The notes: a model not told the origin generated them from the sequence alone. Shown: positions 1,315-16,199, counted from the first letter of the stretch. The stretch: 16,199 bases of DNA from Candidatus Methylomirabilota bacterium (GCA_025922915.1 JAICGY010000045.1:1-16199); one strand, 5' to 3'. Numbers and translations: made by a program.

Positions 1315-2568
1315 TCACAGCTGGTTCCGCAGCGGCAGGAAGAACCACTCGAACACGCGCCCGGCGCCCCGACGCCTCCACGCGTCGTACGTGACCTCGC
1401 GCGCGAACTCCAGATCCTCCCGGAAGACGTCGTCGAGACGCCCGGCGACGGTCGCATCGTAGAACGCGACGTTCAGCTCGTGATTGAGGGCGAATGATCG
1501 GTTGTCGAGGTTGGCGCTGCCGATGCTCGCCCACGTGCCGTCGATCACCAGGGTCTTGGCGTGCAGGAGCGCCGCCGTGTACTCGTAGACCTTCACCCCG
1601 CCCCGCAGCGCCGCGCCCAGCGCCTGCCGGCTCGCCACCCGGACGACGCGATCGACGGTGTTGTCGACCTGTCCGGCGATCAGCACCGACACCTTGACGC
1701 CGCGCCGGGCCGCGTTCACGAGCGCCTCGCTGATCCGCCGGTCGGGGACGAAGTACGGCGTCGTGATGTTGATCGACGATCGCGCCGACTCCAGGGACAG
1801 CAGGAAGAGGTTGTAGGCCTCCGAGCTGCCGCCCGCCGGCGAGCTCCTCACGCACTGCGCGACGACGTCGCCGCGGCGCGCCAGGTCCGGGAAGTACGCG
1901 TCGCCGCCCAGCAGCATGCCGGTCCGCTCGCGCCAGAGCTCGGCGAAGGCGGCCTGCAGATGGCGCACGATCGGCCCTTCCACCCGGACGTCGGTCTGGC
2001 GCCACCGCCCCGGCTGCCGGCCGTTGCCGGTCCACTTCGCACCGATCCCGGAGCCGCCCGTGAACCCGACGCGCCCGTCGATCACCAGGATTCGCCGATG
2101 CGTACGGCGATTCACCCGGCGCATGTCGAGCGGGTTGAGCGGACGGAAGCGCTCGACGTGGCATCCGGAGCGCCGAAGCGTCGTGCGGACATGGTCGGAC
2201 ATCCGGTGCGAGCCGACGGCGTCGACCAGCACGTTGACGCCGACACCGGCCCGGCAGCGCTCGGCCAGCGCGTTCGCCACCTCGTCGGCGAGCGGTCCGT
2301 CCTCGTAGAGGTAGGTCGTGAACGTGATCGTCGTGCGCGCGCGGCGGATGGCGGCCAGCATGGCGGGAAAGATCTCGTCGCCGTCGAGCAGGATCGTCGC
2401 GGCGTTGCCGGGAATACGCGGCGACAGCGTGTGCGCTTCGATCGTCCGCGCGAGCGACGCGTCACTGGCGGGGACGTCCGGGACGATGTAGTGTGGCCGC
2501 GGCTGGGCGCATCCCGCGACCGCCGGGAGCAGGAGAAGCAGCACCGCGAGCCTGGAAAACGGTTTCAT
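1315..2568 (-). CDS. Phospholipase D / cardiolipin synthase family lipoprotein (ClsB-like) with two HKD-type motifs
   Basis: The true start is the ATG at complement 2566-2568 (MKPFSRLAVLLLLLPAVAGC...). The N-terminus is a lipoprotein signal with lipobox VAGC. The second HKD motif is canonical (HAKTLVIDGTWASIGSANLDNRS). The first is degenerate (HRRILVIDGRVGFTGGSGI). The stop is TGA at 1315-1317. The listed 624-aa ORF over-extends upstream into non-homologous Arg/Ser-rich sequence. Confidence 0.8.
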   Translation of the reverse strand: MKPFSRLAVLLLLLPAVAGCAQPRPHYIVPDVPASDASLARTIEAHTLSPRIPGNAATILLDGDEIFPAMLAAIRRARTTITFTTYLYEDGPLADEVANALAERCRAGVGVNVLVDAVGSHRMSDHVRTTLRRSGCHVERFRPLNPLDMRRVNRRTHRRILVIDGRVGFTGGSGIGAKWTGNGRQPGRWRQTDVRVEGPIVRHLQAAFAELWRERTGMLLGGDAYFPDLARRGDVVAQCVRSSPAGGSSEAYNLFLLSLESARSSINITTPYFVPDRRISEALVNAARRGVKVSVLIAGQVDNTVDRVVRVASRQALGAALRGGVKVYEYTAALLHAKTLVIDGTWASIGSANLDNRSFALNHELNVAFYDATVAGRLDDVFREDLEFAREVTYDAWRRRGAGRVFEWFFLPLRNQL

Positions 2569-2797
2569 CGATCGGGCGGATCTCGGGCGCCGCCGCAACG
2601 GGGAGTGCAGGGGCACCGTACTGTCGAGCCACGCAATCCGCGCGCCAAAGCCTCGCACCGCCAGGTCGCTGACACATGCGGCACGGTCCAGGACAGCCGC
2701 CCTCGAGCCACCGATCGAGCCGCGATCACGTTTCGCCAAAAACAGCACATAGTTACATGGTGGGGGACCTCGAACCTCACGGGACCGTCGAGACGCC

Positions 2798-5700
2798 ATG
2801 CGCTGTCCGTCCTGCCAGGCCGAGAATCGCCCCGGCGTGAAGTTCTGCGAGCAGTGCGGCGCCCGCCTGGAAGGCGTCTGCCCCTCGTGCGGCGCGCCGG
2901 TGCCGCCCTCGAGCCGGTTCTGCGGGGAGTGCGGCGCCCCGCTCGGCCCCGCCTCCCCGCCGCTGCCCCGGGCGGCGCCCGCGGCGGCCGGGCCGGCGCC
3001 GTTCACGTCGCCGCGGGCGTACACGCCGGCCCACCTCGTGGAGCGCATCCTCAAGGACGGCGCGGCGCTCGTCGGAGAGCGCAAGCAGGTCACCGTGCTG
3101 TTCGCCGACGTGTCGGGATTCACGTCGCTGTCGGAACGGCTCGATCCCGAGGACGTGCACGGGCTCATCAACCGGGCGTTCGAGCTCATGCTCGCCGAGA
3201 TCCACCGCTACGAGGGCACGGTCAACCAGTTCCTCGGCGACGGCCTCATGGCCCTCTTCGGCGCGCCCCTCGCGCACGAGGATCACGCGCAGCGGGCGGC
3301 GCTGGCCGCGCTCGGCATGCAGGGGGCGCTCGCCCGCTTCCGGCAGGAGCTGCAGCGTACGCGCGGCGTGGAGTTTTGCGTCCGCATGGGCCTCAACACG
3401 GGGCTCGTGGTCGTCGGCGCCATCGGCGACAACCTCCGCATGGACTACACGGCGGTCGGCGACACCACCAACATCGCGGCCCGGATGCAGCAGCTCGCCG
3501 AGCCGGGACAGATCGTGGTCGCCGAGGGCACGGAACGGCTCATCGCGCCGTACTTCGACCTGCGGGCCCTCGGCACCTTCACGGTCAGGAACCGGACGCA
3601 GCCGGTGGCGGGGTGGGAGCTGGGGCCCGCGCGCGCCGGGGTGTCGCGACTCGCCGCGCGCGCTGCCCACGGGCTGTCGCCGTTCGTCGGACGCGACGAT
3701 GCGCTGGCGGCGCTCGAGCGGGCGTGGAGCGCGGCCCGCGCCGGGCGCGGCCAGGCCGTGCTCGTGGTGGGCGATCCGGGAATCGGGAAGTCACGGCTGC
3801 TGCTGGAATTCCGCCGGCACGTCGGCGGCGCCGCCGTCTGGATCGAGGGCGACTGCATCTCCTTCGGCCAGTCGGTGCCCTTCCTACCGATCGCCGCGAT
3901 GCTGCGCGCCCACCTCGGCATCGACGATCAGGACGACGAGCGCGCCATCGTGGGCAAGATCGAGCGCGGCGTCGGCTTCCTCGGCGAGGACGCGACGCGC
4001 GTGACGCCGTACCTGAGGTTCCTGCTCTCCGTGGATCCCGGCGATCCGGCGATGGCCACCGTGGACCCGCTGTTGCGCCGCGAGCGCATCATCGCGGCCG
4101 TCCTCGGCCTGCTCGCGGCCTGGAGCCGTCAGCGGCCGCTCGTGCTCGTGGTCGAGGACGCGCACTGGATCGACAGCGCCTCCGAGGATGTGCTGAAGGC
4201 CTTCATGGAGAGCCTCCCCGGCCTGGCCATCCTGCTCGTCATCACCTACCGGCCCGTCTATCAGCAGCCCTTCGGCGATCGGACCTACTACTCGCGCATC
4301 GCCCTCCAGCCGGTGGACGAGGACGACGCGGGGCGGATCGTCCGCACGACCCTCGGGGTGTCGGATGTCCCGCGCGAGCTCGGCGTGGCGATCGCCTCGC
4401 GGGCCGAAGGCAACCCGTTCTTCCTCGAGGAGCTCGGGCGCTCCCTCGTGGAGAGCGGCGCCGTGCACGCGGAGAACGGCCGCCTCGTGCTCGCGCAGCC
4501 CGTGGCGACGCTCGCGGTGCCGGAGACCGTGCAGGACGTCATCGCCGCGCGCATCGACCGTCTCGACGAGCCACAGAAGCGGACCGTGCAGACCGCGTCG
4601 GTCATCGGCCGCGAGTTCGGGCTGACCCTCCTGCGGCGCGTGTCCGCACTCCGCGACCAGCTCGAGCGGAGCCTGCGCGAGCTGAAGCGCATCGAGCTGA
4701 TCTACGAGAAGGCCGGCTTCGGCGAGCCGGAATACGTCTTCCGCCACGCGCTCACCCAGGACGTGGCGTACGCGTCGCTGCTGCAGGCCGAGCGTCGCCG
4801 GCTGCACGGCGTGATCGGCCTGGCGATCGAGGACCTGTACGCCGGCCGCCTCGAGCCGCGGACGGAAGCGCTCGTCTACCACTTCACCCGGGGCGAGGTC
4901 TGGGACAAGGTCGTCCGCTACGCGCGCGACGCCGCCGAGCGCGCCGCCGCCCTGTGCGTCGACGACAAGGCGATCGAGCACTACCGGACCGCCCTCGTCG
5001 CGCTCGGTCATCTGCCCGAGACGGACGCCCACGGGCGCGCCGGCGTCGAGATCCGGCTCGCCATGCGCGCGCCGCTCTGGCGGGCCGGCCGACCGGAGGA
5101 GCTGCACGCGCTCTTCACCGAGGCGGAAACCCTGGCCACGCGCTGGGGATTCGCCGACCCGCTCGACACCATCTATGCCTTCCTCGTGCAGTATCACTGG
5201 GCGCGGGGCGAGCAGGACCGCGCCCTGGAGTACGGCGGACGCTGTCTCGAGCGCGCGGCCACGCGCGGCGATCTGGGCCTGCGCGTCACCGGCCTCTACT
5301 ACATGGCGCACGCCTGCCTGACCCTCGGGCGCTTCGCCGACGTCGTGCGCCACGCCGACGAGATGCTCGGCCGCCTCGCCGGACGCGAGGGCGAGCGCTT
5401 CGGCCTGTCCGGGTTGCCGGCCGCGGGCGTCTGCACCGACGCCGCGCAGGCGCTCCTGGCCGTGGGCGACACCGAGCGCGCGTGGCACTACGCGCGTCGG
5501 GCGCGGGCCATCGCCGACGCCGCCGGCCACGTCTACAGTCAGATGGTCGTGGCCCAGATGGACGGAGTGCTCCTCGCCGGCACCGGGCGCATCGACGAGG
5601 CGATCGCCACCCTGGAAGCCACCGCCGCGACCTGTCGGGAGAAGAACTTCGTGGGGCAGCTCATCAACGCGCTCCACGGGCTGGGCATCGCCTACGCCGA

Positions 5701-6052
5701 GGCCGGCCGTCCCGCGGACGCGGTGCGCGCCGCTCGGGAGTCGATCGAGCTGCAGGAGCGAGCGCGCGTCTCGGTGAACCGGGCCGACAAGCTGGCCACG
5801 CTGGTGGCCCCGTACGCGGCCCTGGGCGACTTCGAGCGCGCGGAGGCGACGCTTCGCGAGGCGCTCCGCTACGCGGAGCGGCAGGGCGAGCGTCCCGGGG
5901 CAGCGCTGGCCCTGCTCGCCGGAGCCCGGCTGGCGCTGCGTCGCGGAGATCGGCCGGAAGCCGAGCGCCGCCTCGACGCCGCGCGGACGATCGCGCGCGA
6001 GCTGGGGATGCGCCCGCTCCTCGAGCGCGCGGAGCGCTGGTTGGCCCCTTGA
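2798..6052 (+). CDS. Multidomain signalling protein: N-terminal double zinc ribbon, class III adenylate/guanylate cyclase (CHD) domain, STAND/AAA_16 (MalT/AfsR-like) P-loop NTPase, and C-terminal TPR-like alpha-helical repeats
   Basis: Residues 1-50 have four CxxC pairs (CPSCQ...CEQCG...CPSCG...CGECG). Residues ~96-275 carry cyclase motifs: VTVLFADVSGFT, FLGDGLMALFGAP, GLNTGLVVVGAIGD and GDTTNIAARMQ. Walker A is VLVVGDPGIGKSRLL at aa ~325-335, and Walker B is LVLVVEDAHWID. The long Ala/Leu/Arg-rich helical C-terminus resembles TPR-like repeats. No LuxR HTH is evident at the C-terminus. Confidence 0.85.
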   Translation: MRCPSCQAENRPGVKFCEQCGARLEGVCPSCGAPVPPSSRFCGECGAPLGPASPPLPRAAPAAAGPAPFTSPRAYTPAHLVERILKDGAALVGERKQVTVLFADVSGFTSLSERLDPEDVHGLINRAFELMLAEIHRYEGTVNQFLGDGLMALFGAPLAHEDHAQRAALAALGMQGALARFRQELQRTRGVEFCVRMGLNTGLVVVGAIGDNLRMDYTAVGDTTNIAARMQQLAEPGQIVVAEGTERLIAPYFDLRALGTFTVRNRTQPVAGWELGPARAGVSRLAARAAHGLSPFVGRDDALAALERAWSAARAGRGQAVLVVGDPGIGKSRLLLEFRRHVGGAAVWIEGDCISFGQSVPFLPIAAMLRAHLGIDDQDDERAIVGKIERGVGFLGEDATRVTPYLRFLLSVDPGDPAMATVDPLLRRERIIAAVLGLLAAWSRQRPLVLVVEDAHWIDSASEDVLKAFMESLPGLAILLVITYRPVYQQPFGDRTYYSRIALQPVDEDDAGRIVRTTLGVSDVPRELGVAIASRAEGNPFFLEELGRSLVESGAVHAENGRLVLAQPVATLAVPETVQDVIAARIDRLDEPQKRTVQTASVIGREFGLTLLRRVSALRDQLERSLRELKRIELIYEKAGFGEPEYVFRHALTQDVAYASLLQAERRRLHGVIGLAIEDLYAGRLEPRTEALVYHFTRGEVWDKVVRYARDAAERAAALCVDDKAIEHYRTALVALGHLPETDAHGRAGVEIRLAMRAPLWRAGRPEELHALFTEAETLATRWGFADPLDTIYAFLVQYHWARGEQDRALEYGGRCLERAATRGDLGLRVTGLYYMAHACLTLGRFADVVRHADEMLGRLAGREGERFGLSGLPAAGVCTDAAQALLAVGDTERAWHYARRARAIADAAGHVYSQMVVAQMDGVLLAGTGRIDEAIATLEATAATCREKNFVGQLINALHGLGIAYAEAGRPADAVRAARESIELQERARVSVNRADKLATLVAPYAALGDFERAEATLREALRYAERQGERPGAALALLAGARLALRRGDRPEAERRLDAARTIARELGMRPLLERAERWLAP

Positions 6053-6109
6053 CCGTCGCCAAACGGCGAGCACGTCACCGCTCGGGCCGCGCCTGACCCG
6101 GCGCCCCGC

Positions 6110-12979: not shown

Positions 12980-14584
12980 CTACTGCGCCCGGCGCCGGTC
13001 GAGGACGGTCGCCCAGTCCAGGCCGAAGCGCGCGAGGTACTTGCGCAGGCGATCGGCGTCGTTCGCGGTGGTCCGGCGCTGGCGGGAGACGGCGAAGAGC
13101 GTGCGGCCGGCGGCCGAGAGGCTGGCGGCCGAGGCGCACACGCGCAGCACCTCGGCGAGCTGCGCGCGGTCGAACCGGTCGAGGGTCTCGATGCGCCCGG
13201 GCCCGAGAAAGCGCCGCAGCGTGGCCTCCGCCTCGTCCGCGGTGGCGGGGGCCCAGAGAGCCCTGAGCCGGGCGATCTCGTCCTCGACCACCGCGGTGGT
13301 CACCCGCCCGCCGGCGGCCAGCGTGGCCATGCGCACCACCGCCGCGTTGAAGTCCCGGAAGTTGGCGGGCCAGCTCGCCTCCGCCGAGGCGGCGAACGTC
13401 AGGAACGCGGCCCGAGCCTCCCGGTTGAACGTCACCCGGGTGCCGTGGCGGGCCGCCCACTGATCCAGCTCGTAGTCGAGGTTCGGCTCCAGGTCCTCGA
13501 CGCGCTCGCGCAGTCCCGGCAGGTGGAAGGTCCACAGGTTGATGCGGGCGAGCAGGTCGTCGCGGAACCGTCCGTGGCGGACGGCCTGTCCGAGGTCGCG
13601 GTTCGTGCCGGCGATGAGCTGGAAGTCGCTGCGCACCTCGCGGTCCGACCCGACGGGCAGGAAGATCTTGTCCTCCAGCGCGCGCAGGAGCATGGCCTGC
13701 TCGTCGGGGCCGAGCTCCCCGATCTCGTCGAGGAACAGGACGCCCCTGTCGGCCGTGCGCAGGAGACCCGGGCGGGGCTGGAGCGCGCCCGTGAACGCGC
13801 CGCGCACGTGGCCGAAGAGCGCCGACATGGCCGCGTCGCCCCGGATGGTGGCGCAGTTCACCTCGACGAACGGCCCCTCGACCTGGCGGCGGGCCTTCTT
13901 CAGCTCGTAGACGCGGCGGGCCAGCTGCGACTTGCCGGCGCCCGTGGGCCCGGTGAGGAGCAGGGGCGCCGTGGAGGCGATGGCAACCTGCTCGATTCGC
14001 TCGATGAGCCGGTTGAACCCGGCGTTGCGGGTGTCGATCCCCGATTTCAGGAACGAGAGCCCCTCGCGCTGCTGCCGCTGGAAGCGGGAGGCCAGGCGGT
14101 CGTACTTCGACAGGTCCAGGTCGATGATCGTGCAGCTGCCCGGCCCGCCGTCGCTGCGCCGCCGCGGCGGCGAGGCCTGCAGGAGCCGGCCGGGGATGTC
14201 CCGCGACTCGGTCAGCAGGAAGAGACAGATCTGGACGACGTGCGTGCCCGTCGTGACGTGGACGAGGTAGCTCTCCTCCTCCGGGCGGAAGGGGTAGCCG
14301 CGGGCGAAGTCGTGGAGCGCGCCGTACACCTGCTCGAAGTCCCACGGGTCGGCGAGTGCCAGCTCGTGCAGCCGGACCTCGGTCTCCGGGGACACCGTGC
14401 GGATGTCGCCCACGATCTCCTCGGCGAGGCGCCGGAACCGCGGCTGGCTGAGGAGCTCGAAGCGGCGGACCAGCAGGTCCTCGTGACGGCACAGGTCGAC
14501 CGTCGGCCGCCACTGGCGCCAGCGGTCGGGGCCGCCGCGATCGAGGGTGCTGCCGAGCATGCCGATCACCACGTTGTCCGGCAT
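12980..14584 (-). CDS. rtcR: RtcR, the sigma-54-dependent transcriptional activator of the RNA repair (rtc) operon: N-terminal CARF-like domain, central AAA+ bEBP domain, C-terminal HTH
   Basis: It matches the remembered E. coli RtcR along its full length. The N-terminus is MPDNVVIGMLGSTLDRGGPDRWRQWRPTV. Other shared segments are PWDFEQVYGALHDFARGYPF, Walker A LLLTGPTGAGKS, the bEBP hallmark GAFTGA (HVRGAFTGA), FLDEIGELGPDEQAMLLRALE, and the C-terminal DADRLRKYLARFGL. The ATG is at complement 14582-14584. Confidence 0.9.
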   Translation of the reverse strand: MPDNVVIGMLGSTLDRGGPDRWRQWRPTVDLCRHEDLLVRRFELLSQPRFRRLAEEIVGDIRTVSPETEVRLHELALADPWDFEQVYGALHDFARGYPFRPEEESYLVHVTTGTHVVQICLFLLTESRDIPGRLLQASPPRRRSDGGPGSCTIIDLDLSKYDRLASRFQRQQREGLSFLKSGIDTRNAGFNRLIERIEQVAIASTAPLLLTGPTGAGKSQLARRVYELKKARRQVEGPFVEVNCATIRGDAAMSALFGHVRGAFTGALQPRPGLLRTADRGVLFLDEIGELGPDEQAMLLRALEDKIFLPVGSDREVRSDFQLIAGTNRDLGQAVRHGRFRDDLLARINLWTFHLPGLRERVEDLEPNLDYELDQWAARHGTRVTFNREARAAFLTFAASAEASWPANFRDFNAAVVRMATLAAGGRVTTAVVEDEIARLRALWAPATADEAEATLRRFLGPGRIETLDRFDRAQLAEVLRVCASAASLSAAGRTLFAVSRQRRTTANDADRLRKYLARFGLDWATVLDRRRAQ

Positions 14585-14711
14585 TGCCGTAGATGATCGT
14601 CTAATACACTAGCCGATGCTATACGAAAATCTGCGGGGTCGAGCAGCCGGCACCGAGGCCTATCGTCAATGAAACCGGATCGTTGCGGCTCACCACGGGC
14701 GGCTCTCGGAC

Positions 14712-14728
14712 CTGGCCCGCTGCGTGCC
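14712..14728 (+). promoter_or_regulatory. Candidate sigma-54 (-24/-12) promoter CTGGCCCGCTGCGTGCC directing transcription toward the SPFH-rtcB genes
   Basis: GG at 14714-14715 and GC at 14726-14727 are separated by exactly 10 nt. The -24 element TGGCCC matches the TGGCAC consensus at 5 of 6 positions, and the -12 element GTGC matches TTGC at 3 of 4. It lies in the divergent intergenic region next to rtcR, as expected for an RtcR target. The predicted start is near 14738-14740. Confidence 0.45.
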
Positions 14729-14746
14729 TTGCTCACCGTCCGTCGA

Positions 14747-14781
14747 CGGGGGCCACGGTGGAAGCGCGGCCGTGGCCCCCG
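14747..14781 (+). promoter_or_regulatory. Perfect 12-bp GC-rich hairpin (CGGGGGCCACGG / CCGTGGCCCCCG, 11-nt loop) at the predicted 5' end of the sigma-54 transcript
   Basis: The inverted repeat was read directly: 14747-14758 pairs with 14770-14781. It lies about 10 nt downstream of the predicted transcription start. Confidence 0.4.
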
Positions 14782-14822
14782 GGGACGGGAGGAGCGAGCA
14801 ACGCCAATGGAGCGGCAGGCCA

Positions 14823-14909
14823 GGTGGCGGATCCGGCGTGCCGGGTTCGCATGACCGATTGGGCCGTCGCGTGGTGAGGCAAGGGGTTCGAATCCCCACC
14901 GCCTCCACC
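14823..14909 (+). ncRNA. tRNA-like structured element (candidate Y-RNA/YrlA-like tRNA mimic or degenerate tRNA/tmRNA-like module). It has a canonical T-arm AGGGG-TTCGAAT-CCCCA, closed by an 8-bp terminal helix GGTGGCGG / CCGCCTCC with one U-U mismatch, then ACC.
   Basis: GGTTCGAATCC at 14885-14895 is the tRNA T-stem/T-loop consensus. The 3' tail CCGCCTCCACC resembles the CUCCACCA 3' end of tRNA-Ala and tmRNA acceptors. 14823-14830 pairs with 14899-14906. No regular D-arm or anticodon arm could be folded by eye, so a canonical tRNA is unlikely. The minus-strand reading gives the wrong T-loop polarity. Confidence 0.4.
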
Positions 14910-14961
14910 CGCCTGGCGCCGGAGGGGACCGTCCCTTCCCCGGCCGCCTGGCCCTGAAGAG

Positions 14962-14981
14962 GCCCGGCCTTTCCGCCGGGC
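14962..14981 (+). terminator. GC hairpin (GCCCGGC-CTTTCC-GCCGGGC, 7-bp stem) downstream of the tRNA-like element and upstream of the SPFH gene; possible attenuator, processing or termination signal. A second hairpin lies at 14921-14939 (GGAGGGG-ACCGT-CCCTTCC).
   Basis: The inverted repeats were read directly. There is no U-tract. They sit between the candidate ncRNA and the ATG at 15029. Confidence 0.3.
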
Positions 14982-15028
14982 GCCGGGCCCAGCCGGGTGG
15001 AGGTCCTGACTCGAGCGAGGAGCGAGCG

Positions 15029-15817
15029 ATGACATTGCCGGGGGCGCTGACGATGGCGGTGGCAACCGCGCTGGTCCTGCTGGTCGCGCGCCGCTGGCTG
15101 GTGGAGCGGGTCGTGGTGTACGAGTATCAGCGCGCGGTGCTCTACCGCCGCGGGCGGCGGCTCCGGACGCTCGGCCCGGGCGTCTACTGGCTCGTGCGCG
15201 GGGTGTCGGCGGTGGCGACCGTCGACGCGCGCTCGCGCGTGGCGGTCGTGGCCGGGCAGGAGATCCTGTCGGCGGACAGCGTCCCGTTGCGCCTCAGCGT
15301 CACGCTCCGCTACCGGGTGACGCGCCCGGAATTGGCGATCGAGGTCGCGGCCTCGTTCGCGGACACGCTGCACGCCGAGACGCAGCTGGCGCTGCGGGAT
15401 CTGGTGGCGGCGGTGACCGCCGAGGAGCTGCTGCCCCAGCGGGCGCGCCTGGCCGGAGGCCTGCACGCCGCGCTGGCGCCGCGGGCCGCGGCCCTGGGCC
15501 TGGAGCTGGAGGAGGCCGGCGTGCGCGACGTCACGTTCCCGGCGCCGCTCAAGCAGCTCTTCGCCCAGGTCGTGGAGGCGCGCCAGGCCGCGCAGGCGGC
15601 GCTGGAGAAGGCGCGGGGCGAGACGGCCGTGCTGCGCCACCTCGCGAATGCCGCCCGGCTGCTGGAGAGCAATCCGGCACTGGTCACGCTGCGCACGCTG
15701 GACGCGGCGGCGGCGAGCCGGGGCGCCATCGTGCTGGCGCTGCCGTCCCCGCTCCTGCCCGGGCCGGGGGGAGGCGTTGCCGGCCGGCCGCCGGGGCCGG
15801 AGTCGATCGGTGGATGA
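15029..15817 (+). CDS. SPFH/band-7 (stomatin/prohibitin/flotillin/HflKC) family membrane protein with one N-terminal transmembrane helix
   Basis: The N-terminal hydrophobic helix is AVATALVLLVA. The SPFH core includes VVVYEYQRAVLYRRGRRLRTLGPGVYWLVRG, ILSADSVPLRLSVTLRYRVTRPELAI and QLALRDLVAAVTAEELL. The coiled Ala/Gln-rich C-terminus (QAAQAALEKARGE) is typical of stomatin-like proteins. GAGGAG lies 6 nt upstream of the ATG. The TGA stop at 15815-15817 is 13 nt before the rtcB ATG. Confidence 0.85.
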   Translation: MTLPGALTMAVATALVLLVARRWLVERVVVYEYQRAVLYRRGRRLRTLGPGVYWLVRGVSAVATVDARSRVAVVAGQEILSADSVPLRLSVTLRYRVTRPELAIEVAASFADTLHAETQLALRDLVAAVTAEELLPQRARLAGGLHAALAPRAAALGLELEEAGVRDVTFPAPLKQLFAQVVEARQAAQAALEKARGETAVLRHLANAARLLESNPALVTLRTLDAAAASRGAIVLALPSPLLPGPGGGVAGRPPGPESIGG

Positions 15818-15830
15818 AAGCGAGGGCGTG

Positions 15831-16199
15831 ATGACGAGCGAGCGGACGTACGACGTGATCACGGGCGACGGCGCGGTCCCGATCAAGGCGTGGACCCGCG
15901 GCGTGCCGGTCGAGGCCGAGGCGACGACGCAGCTGCTGAACGTCGCCCGGCTGCCCTTCATCCACCGCTGGGTGGCGGCGATGCCTGACGTGCACTGGGG
16001 GATCGGCGCCACGGTCGGGAGCGTCATCCCGACCGTGGGCGCCGTCATCCCGGCCGCGGTCGGCGTCGACATCGGGTGCGGGATGATGGCGGTGCAGACG
16101 ACGCTCACGGCGAGCGACCTGCCGGAGAGCCTGCGCGAGGTGCGCACGGCGATCGAGCGCGCCGTGCCGCACGGTCGCGCGCCGCGGGGCCGCGATCAC
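15831..16199 (+). CDS. rtcB: RNA-splicing ligase RtcB (3'-phosphate/5'-hydroxyl RNA ligase), N-terminal 123 codons; 3' partial at the window end
   Basis: The translation MTSERTYDVITGDGAVPIKAWTRGVPVEAEATTQLLNVARLPFIHRWVAAMPDVHWGIGATVGSVIPTVGAVIPAAVGVDIGCGMMAV aligns almost residue-for-residue with the E. coli RtcB N-terminus (KMWTKGVPVEADARQQL...MPDVHLGKGSTIGSVIPTKGAIIPAAVGVDIGCGM). This ORF is absent from the supplied track because it runs off the window. Confidence 0.9.
   Translation, partial: MTSERTYDVITGDGAVPIKAWTRGVPVEAEATTQLLNVARLPFIHRWVAAMPDVHWGIGATVGSVIPTVGAVIPAAVGVDIGCGMMAVQTTLTASDLPESLREVRTAIERAVPHGRAPRGRDH

Follow-up and report, generated by a model that had tools for sequence, protein, structure and literature searches.

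A two-domain RNA with a tRNA-type T-arm in the predicted leader of a Band-7 (SPFH) gene of a Candidatus Methylomirabilota bacterium, and its relatives in other bacterial phyla

The DNA analysed here, called the window throughout, is one stretch of 16,199 nucleotides from a Candidatus Methylomirabilota bacterium (GCA_025922915.1 JAICGY010000045.1:1-16199). Two divergent genes of this stretch, encoding RtcR and a Band-7 (SPFH) protein, are separated by a gap of 444 nt, and the T-arm element that is the subject of this work lies inside that gap. RtcR matches the Pfam families PF06956 (E = 5.8e-81) and PF00158 (E = 7.2e-48), and the Band-7 protein has an N-terminal hydrophobic stretch that is a possible membrane anchor. 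In close relatives the full operon is visible and consists of RtcR on the minus strand, a gap of about 440 nt and then Band_7-RtcB-RtcA. The sigma-54 box upstream of Band-7 is read as GGCACG-N4-GTGC at the same alignment position in these relatives and is predicted to be the RtcR-dependent promoter of the leader, and the alignment of the whole gap shows conservation throughout, from this box to the start codon. No sigma-70-like promoter was predicted in 14560-15060, and a scan of the gap found neither a terminator nor a second promoter for Band-7. The features of the locus are the following:

12980-14584, minus strand: RtcR, with a CARF-like RtcR domain and a sigma-54 activator AAA+ domain, divergent
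14713-14727, plus strand: sigma-54 type -24/-12 box TGGCCCGCTGCGTGC, read from the sequence, GG and GC 10 nt apart
14748-14780, plus strand: P0, an 11-bp GC hairpin at the predicted 5' end of the transcript, clade-specific
14812-15003, plus strand: the whole structured RNA, about 192 nt, a 5' domain with the T-arm and a 3' domain
14812-14816, plus strand: stem A, 5' strand GCGGC, partner 14866-14870
14823-14856, plus strand: P2 hairpin, GGU/ACC plus GCGGAUCCGG-CGUG-CCGGGUUCGC
14866-14870, plus strand: stem A, 3' strand GUCGC, partner 14812-14816, with one G·U pair
14883-14897, plus strand: T-arm GGGGTTCGAATCCCC, GGGG / UUCGAAU / CCCC, tRNA consensus T-loop
14902-14917, plus strand: stem C, 5' strand CCUCCACCCGCCUGGC, partner 14987-15003, containing the CCUCCACC segment
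14920-14942, plus strand: hairpin G, GGAGGG...CCCUUCC, within the 3' domain
14948-14979, plus strand: stem E and hairpin F, CUGGC-CCUGAAGAGGCC...GGCCUUUCCGCC-GG
14987-15003, plus strand: stem C, 3' strand GCCCAGCCGGGUGGAGG, ending 25 nt before the Band-7 start codon
15029-15817, plus strand: Band-7/SPFH protein, slipin-type, 262 aa (Pfam PF01145, E = 2.6e-28)
15831-16199, plus strand: N-terminal part of the RNA ligase RtcB (Pfam PF01139, E = 4.8e-31), truncated by the end of the window

The T-arm is very probably one module of a structured RNA of about 192 nt with two domains, and the element of about 85 nt at 14823-14909 that had been proposed before falls within it. RNAalifold, run on 7 and then on 12 sequences of close relatives, returned P0, P2, the T-arm, stem C and the hairpins G and F. 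In the clade alignment of 12 sequences (A5), pairs form in 93.6% of the cells, the shifted controls giving 44-57%; changes on both sides occur at 23 pairs, and none of 500 shuffles reached the observed values. Within the clade, stem C (15 pairs, 8 with changes on both sides) is paired to 95% and P2 (10+3 pairs, 7 with changes on both sides) to 88-94%, the latter being found also in minimum-energy folds, and hairpin G (6 pairs, 2 with changes on both sides) is paired to 100%. Stem A is the weakest helix within the clade, with 76.7% paired; it takes the form GGGAG/CUCCC in other phyla, with changes on both sides at 5 of 5 pairs. Stem E and hairpin F constitute the most sequence-conserved motif of the family, with the consensus GCCnUGCAGGU..ACCUCCGC and many columns at least 90% identical, and hairpin F carries an anti-Shine-Dalgarno-like CCUCC. 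When the sequence 14808-15006 was folded on its own, stem A, P2 and stem C were recovered (z = -2.07). The consensus structure contains no helix joining the 5' and 3' termini. The P0 hairpin, with 12 pairs of which 3 have changes on both sides (RNAalifold, 7 relatives), lies outside the RNA shared by the phyla.

The T-arm, described as a textbook one in the sequence-only reading, is borne out by its location and its rarity. The motif AGGGG-TTCGAAT-CCCCA lies at 14882-14898, and GGGGTTCGAATCCCC has a single occurrence in the 16.2-kb window, where shuffles lead one to expect 0.01. By sequence it agrees with the tRNA consensus G53-T54-psi55-C56-R57-A58...C61. In the multi-phylum alignment the inner three pairs of the stem are invariant or nearly so and the outermost pair covaries (GC 19, AU 12, UA 8, CG 6), and most of the 80 genome loci described below carry GGGTTCRANTCCC, a motif of the GGTTCRANYC type, 100-165 nt 5' of the start of Band-7. 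The strand after the T-arm had been taken for a tail of tRNA-Ala or tmRNA type, ending in CCUCCACC. This segment makes up the 5' strand of stem C, a long-range helix in which the partner GGUGGAGG lies about 70-90 nt downstream, and since the segment covaries with that strand, it is not a 3' end. Across phyla, changes on both sides were found at 18 of the 18 pairs of stem C, and the strands of five loci illustrate this covariation:

Window: after the T-arm CCUCCACCCG, distant strand CGGGUGGAGG
Locus L084: after the T-arm CCCCCAUCCG, distant strand CGGGUGGGGG
Locus L002: after the T-arm CCCCUGCCC, distant strand GGGCAGGGG
Locus L098: after the T-arm CCCCUACCC, distant strand GGGUAGGGG
Locus L081: after the T-arm CCCUCAUCCGGC, distant strand GCCGGCUGAGGG

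The members of the family in other phyla were collected through the Band-7 protein. An alignment of its homologues led to 80 genome loci from many phyla (L001-L080), and a scan of metagenomes with the single protein gave only 3 loci. Twenty-eight typical sequences, chosen with Methylomirabilota excluded and aligned over about 195 nt, share one common architecture, in which the 5' half is made of stem A around a long P2, a variable linker or hairpin B, and the T-arm, and the 3' half of stem C, 18 bp long, with stems D and E and hairpin F inside it. The covariance model built from these sequences (R1) matches the plus strand just 5' of Band-7 in about 90 of 93 loci, with E from 1e-46 to 1e-6. 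The R1 alignment was fitted to the model and so favours the model's own structure; pairing in it extends to 90.8% of the cells, compared with 40-51% after shifting, and two-sided changes mark 48 of 52 pairs as covarying (covariation score 0.60 versus about 0.1). In the R1 alignment together with A5, the helices A, P2, T, C, E and F are maintained by covariation. On the window itself R1 matched 14839-15009 with just 20 bits (E = 0.0037 in 628 kb and 1.5e-4 in 25 kb) and with the 5' part misaligned; therefore, the membership of the window in the family rests on its close relatives, which reach 33-53 bits, and on A5.

The RNA of the window is thus the Methylomirabilota-type version of a family that stands upstream of one Band-7 subfamily in many phyla. 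Its carriers include Acidobacteriota, Planctomycetota, Chloroflexota, Gemmatimonadota and Nitrospirota, and further Myxococcota, Melainabacteria, Omnitrophota, Pseudomonadota and Methylomirabilota; Anaeromyxobacter oryzisoli SG63 and Ornatilinea apprima P3M-1 are cultured carriers. A search of 19 diverse loci found no Rfam family over the RNA, none was found in the window at gathering thresholds, and the typical member L051 gave no match to a tRNA-clan, tmRNA or other Rfam family at E up to 10. The class is absent from Rfam, and its two-domain architecture may be undescribed. A phage origin was also considered and set aside, the scan of viral contigs with the hairpin-F motif giving three chance matches of 25 nt and no full RNA.

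The partner of this RNA is Band-7 and not the rtc genes. Searches with tblastn found RtcB, RtcA or RtcR in only 8 of the 80 genome loci, none of them being present within about 3.5 kb in the other 72, and the conserved unit is therefore the RNA together with Band-7. The neighbours in seven sampled rtc-free loci are unrelated, an ABC transporter, a beta-helix protein and a molybdopterin oxidoreductase being among them. Methylomirabilota and a few other lineages, e.g. Anaeromyxobacter, have joined the RNA-Band-7 unit to an RtcR-controlled rtcBA operon. From the last base of stem C to the Band-7 start codon the median distance is 21 nt, with 15-27 nt in 62 of 78 loci; the Shine-Dalgarno sequence comes directly after stem C, a few nucleotides past the helix and outside the consensus helices. 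T is only mildly enriched after stem C, with at least five T in the following 9 nt in only 12 of 89 loci, so that read-through into Band-7 would be the rule. Stem C followed by a U-tract was rejected as an intrinsic terminator on this count and on the scan of the window, which found none. The RNA is predicted to be made as the first part of the Band-7 transcript, here Band-7-rtcB-rtcA. In one AT-rich locus (L004) a sigma-70-like promoter ends 16 nt 5' of the RNA; none was found in one second locus. Boxes resembling a -10 element are visible by eye in several other loci. Together, the L004 promoter and these boxes weakly suggest that the RNA may start at stem A.

By its position the element is related to a tRNA-like RNA that was predicted computationally and has barely been studied. 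This tRNA associated with band-7 (b7a-tRNA) was predicted by Burroughs and Aravind (2016) next to Band-7/SPFH genes, often with RtcB, as quoted in bioRxiv 10.1101/312249, and the statement of Wang et al. in that preprint gives it a strong resemblance to authentic tRNA and refers to it as being without experimental validation. In Pseudomonas aeruginosa the gene PA4581.1, with the annotation tRNA-Arg4, has rtcR on one side and the PA4582-PA4585 rtc cluster on the other; it is without CCA, has G20, is detectable by qRT-PCR, and its level did not follow rtc induction (PMC13637947, 2026). In our comparison, rtcR and a sigma-54 box on pGJ3-1 of Photobacterium sp. GJ3 are followed by two genes in tandem, which ARAGORN calls as tRNA-like cloverleaves, and then by Band-7 and RtcB. 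A Citrobacter plasmid carries rtcR, a non-cloverleaf RNA with a T-arm, Band-7 and an RlaP nucleotidyltransferase; on these loci R1 matched the T-arm only. Plasmid rtcR loci of other types hold VWA (Xanthomonas), Rsr/TROVE (Rhizobium, Pseudomonas sp. Leaf58) or a hypothetical protein (Methylosinus). The earlier suggestion that tRNA-like RNAs occur at this slot is sustained, with Y RNAs beside Rsr and cloverleaves beside Band-7 in Pseudomonas and Photobacterium.

The RNA of the window shares with b7a-tRNA its co-orientation with the Band-7/SPFH gene, directly 5' of it, the location between a divergent rtcR with the sigma-54 promoter and Band-7-rtcB in rtc loci, a canonical tRNA T-arm, and a CCA that is not encoded; it ends 25 nt before Band-7, which rtcB follows. 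However, b7a-tRNAs are cloverleaves of about 72 nt that ARAGORN or annotators call as tRNA genes, whereas the RNA described here has about 192 nt, is without an acceptor stem or an anticodon arm, and adds a second domain closed by a long-range helix. The Band-7 partners differ as well, with 262 aa here and 375-424 aa with an N-terminal extension at the cloverleaf loci, at about 35% identity. Since the RNA occupies the b7a-tRNA slot and carries the T-arm, yet is tRNA-like in the T-arm only, it is a structural variant that stands outside the cloverleaf family. The picture of a band-7-associated tRNA is thereby corrected, as in most lineages the Band-7-associated RNA is not a cloverleaf.

Three other kinds of RNA resemble it in part. 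The YrlA-type bacterial Y RNAs have a tRNA-like element and belong to RtcR-controlled RNA-repair operons (Chen et al., 2014, PMC4201824; Wang et al., 2018), and they share with the RNA of the window the conserved T-loop, the co-transcription and the proposed role of RNA partner to a scaffold protein. Here, however, the partner gene is Band-7 and most loci are without rtc genes. The Pfam scan of window ORFs detected no rsr/TROVE gene, in agreement with the earlier remark that rsr is absent, no Rfam family of Y-RNA type matched 14560-15060 at E up to 10, and the consensus structure shows no Ro-binding stem between the 5' and 3' ends; the RNA is therefore not of the YrlA type that had been considered. 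The tmRNA model (RF00023) gave the only tRNA-clan match from Rfam at E up to 10, with 15.7 bits against a gathering score of 47, in a sub-threshold alignment that covers both ends of the tRNA-like domain and that is founded on the T-arm followed by ...CCUCCACC. In other respects the two differ: the strand with which CCUCCACC covaries lies downstream, ARAGORN detects neither a tmRNA nor a tag reading frame, and L051 is without a tmRNA match. Riboswitches, T-box RNAs and ribosomal-protein leaders are likewise conserved multi-helix RNAs at a fixed short distance 5' of one gene family, and the T-box stem I is also built with T-loop motifs. In contrast to these structured 5' leaders, no expression platform could be recognised, nor was any Rfam match found in the 19 diverse loci.

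Taken as a whole, these data are best explained by a two-domain, Band-7-linked leader RNA that may act with the SPFH protein, to which we assign a probability of about 0.6. With regard to its function, we infer that the RNA either serves the SPFH protein as a partner or acts in cis as the leader of the Band-7 mRNA. In the proposed mechanism, an RtcR-dependent sigma-54 promoter would have the RNA transcribed as the 5' leader of Band-7(SPFH)-rtcB-rtcA. The 5' domain presents, in this order, stem A enclosing a long P2, a variable linker and the T-arm; the strand after the T-arm does not lead back to the 5' end but pairs downstream in stem C, closing a 3' domain with G and F. The RNA would then cooperate with the SPFH protein encoded on the same transcript, either as a partner resembling a Y RNA or as a scaffold, and the exposed T-loop of tRNA type would offer a handle to proteins or RNAs able to recognise the tRNA elbow, RtcB among them at loci with rtcB. 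By analogy with Y RNA and Ro, it is possible, and we propose it tentatively, that the RNA is a partner or scaffold of the SPFH protein with the T-loop as an elbow mimic. The start codon follows at a tight distance, the window offers no promoter of Band-7's own, and a general terminator is lacking; these points speak against the partnership, and fit a cis-acting leader equally well or better.

Nearly as likely as the partnership is, in fact, that the RNA is a structured 5' untranslated region which controls the translation or the stability of the Band-7 mRNA and is never a free RNA, although taken by itself this explanation also has less than even odds. Such a leader may be a riboswitch-like sensor, or an autoregulatory site for Band-7 or another protein, in which case the T-loop may have only a tertiary-structural role. 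In nearly all loci the RNA is on the same strand as Band-7 and directly 5' of it, at the short distance and with the Shine-Dalgarno position given above, and the anti-Shine-Dalgarno-like CCUCC in hairpin F, the most conserved motif, also favours this reading. Nevertheless, no conserved alternative pairing was found that would sequester the Shine-Dalgarno sequence or build a terminator, and the sole candidate for a switch, in which the 5' strand would pair with the one after the T-arm, is at the level of shuffles. Tertiary T-loop motifs normally keep less than the full tRNA-consensus T-loop retained here. In addition, the slot of Pseudomonas type is occupied by a separate tRNA-like gene, the level of which does not follow rtc induction (PMC13637947).

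Far less probable is the explanation from which this work started, namely a tRNA mimic of about 85 nt at 14823-14909, with an acceptor-like helix and the CCUCCACC tail, similar to YrlA and serving as a substrate of RtcB or as a decoy for RtcR. It draws on the genuine T-arm, on the RF00023 match, which aligns the 3' end of the element, and on GAGGUGG/CCACCUC, able to pair perfectly beside the T-stem in two relatives (L096 and L099). The strands of its helix of 8 bp are present (GGTGGCGG at 14823-14830 and CCGCCTCC at 14899-14906), but they form 7 of 8 pairs, T14825/T14904 being a U·U mismatch, and a 7/8 match to CCGCCTCC arose in 56% of cases when the GC-rich upstream stretch of 142 nt was shuffled and in 15% when the 35-nt zone at tRNA-like distance was. 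The region 14815-14915 (101 nt) folds no better than its shuffles (z = -1.56), and its minimum-energy fold is without the helix, GGUGGCGG pairing there with the following CCGGGUUCGC...ACC. Within the clade the helix is paired to 64.6%, where shuffles give 60.4% and a shift by 3 gives 70.8%; a second register beside the T-stem gave 72.6% against 71.4%, and across phyla the closure of the 5' strand with the strand after the T-arm gave 54.0% against 52.5%, with 45 of 500 shuffles as high. Covariation thus accompanies neither the helix in the clade nor its counterpart across phyla; the expectation that helix and T-arm would be conserved together holds for the T-arm and fails for the helix. Because the closure of tRNA style is at shuffle level, only the T-arm is tRNA-like in the family. 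Moreover, both strands of the helix are occupied by helices that do covary, the first by P2 and the second by stem C, which also contains the ACC at 14907-14909, so that no discriminator and CCA 3' end is formed. The pairing GACGGAA/UUCUGUC was also considered, as an acceptor stem or as a switch with stem C, and was not supported by the counts.

The gene-level data agree with this outcome. ARAGORN called neither a tRNA nor a tmRNA in the window, as fits the earlier view that this is not an ordinary tRNA gene, and throughout L001-L080 the Band-7-proximal site was without a tRNA-like call; the tRNA-like genes of the Photobacterium locus (L110), used as positive control, were called. The substrate and decoy proposals do not generalise, given the 72 of 80 loci without RtcB, RtcA and RtcR nearby. 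The placing of the element in an rtcB operon leader had been broadly right, although the next gene downstream is Band-7, rtcB starting only at 15831. The invariant partner Band-7 was missing from the sequence-only reading, which was right about the T-arm and, in spirit, about the tRNA mimicry, and wrong about the helix, the tail, the size and the RtcB-centred function. Least probable of all, and refuted by the data, is a decayed tRNA 3' half left at an integration (att) site or a chance match in GC-rich DNA, for although matches to a T-arm only are typical of att sites, the window contains no tRNA gene, the T-arm motif occurs in it once, and the element keeps the same position relative to Band-7 in many phyla, within a covarying structure.

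The leader RNA that may act with the SPFH protein, our preferred explanation, can be carried one step further with respect to its origin. It may be derived from a tRNA that retained the order of a D-arm-like stem A, a variable hairpin and the T-arm, and in which the acceptor helix was rebuilt with a downstream strand; the result would be a circularly permuted and expanded tRNA fold, with the 5' and 3' ends meeting at the position of the tRNA 7/8 junction. The D-loop-like GG expected opposite the T-loop is in its place in only 56 of 85 members, and a role as a D-loop is therefore speculative. That the RNA is the obligatory partner of a membrane-anchored SPFH cage, and that it has such a permuted fold derived from tRNA, making up a widespread membrane ribonucleoprotein, is a conjecture that we regard as rather unlikely. 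If true, a membrane ribonucleoprotein would be present in many phyla, for the most part unlinked to RNA repair.

Both the RtcB/RtcA repair operons and the SPFH proteins are widespread, and their physiological roles in bacteria are poorly defined. An RNA of about 190 nt that covaries strongly, accompanies one SPFH subfamily and is occasionally placed under RtcR control provides a concrete object on which these roles can be tested. It raises the questions of whether SPFH scaffolds bind RNA, whether a mimic of the tRNA elbow may recruit RtcB or damaged tRNAs to the membrane, and whether the RNA may instead represent a new class of leaders that governs the synthesis of SPFH proteins.

Among the 80 genome loci fetched via Band-7 homologues (L001-L080), 72 had no RtcB, RtcA or RtcR within ~3.5 kb of the pair formed by the structured RNA with its tRNA-type T-arm and the adjoining Band-7/SPFH gene, and the pair was found beside unrelated neighbours in seven sampled loci of these 72. 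In Anaeromyxobacter (L017 and L063) the gene order was reversed, with rtcB-rtcA followed by the RNA and Band-7 pair. At a further comparison locus (L095, contig_71785), the Band-7 homologue adjoins fragmentary RtcB and RtcA calls together with a PheS fragment, and the covariance model built from phyla other than Methylomirabilota (R1) gave no RNA match upstream of this homologue; the appearance of this long-read contig suggests many frameshifts or a chimera.

RNAs of other shapes were observed at two other loci. On a Citrobacter freundii plasmid (L108, 2300-2450), the T-arm GTGGGTTCGATTCCCAAT is carried by a non-cloverleaf RNA, in the order rtcR, sigma-54 box, T-arm RNA, Band-7 protein (375 aa) and RlaP nucleotidyltransferase, and the locus is devoid of RtcB. 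This RNA may represent a third architecture among the Band-7-associated RNAs. In Photobacterium sp. GJ3 (pGJ3-1; L110, 2724-2865), two cloverleaf tRNA-like genes, tandem and overlapping, lie between rtcR and Band-7-RtcB; in the ARAGORN calls, the upstream gene is tRNA-???, its anticodon loop being abnormal, and the other is tRNA-Met(CAT). Neither of them encodes CCA.

Within the window, a near-palindrome, TAGATGATCGTCTAA, was noted at 14591-14606, 7 nt off the rtcR start, with the sigma-54 box following ~110 nt downstream, and all close relatives keep it, there as TTAGAYGATCRTCTAA. It is a candidate enhancer-binding site for RtcR. A GC hairpin with 11 bp and no mismatch (P0, 14748-14780) directly follows the predicted start of sigma-54 transcription; it was found in Methylomirabilota-type loci only, where covariation is present, and may stabilise the 5' end or be a site of processing. 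Farther away, the region 3200-6100 holds long ORFs on both strands without a Pfam match, for instance 1561-6096 (+) and 3884-6073 (-), and the genes flanking them encode ordinary metabolic enzymes.

The highest sequence conservation within the RNA family was found in hairpin F of the 3' domain (14953-14977; family consensus GCCnUGCAGGU-loop-ACCUCCGC), many columns of which are at least 90% identical. This hairpin retains a C·C mismatch and contains CCUCC, an anti-Shine-Dalgarno-like motif, and it is likely that it serves as a binding site or a tertiary contact.
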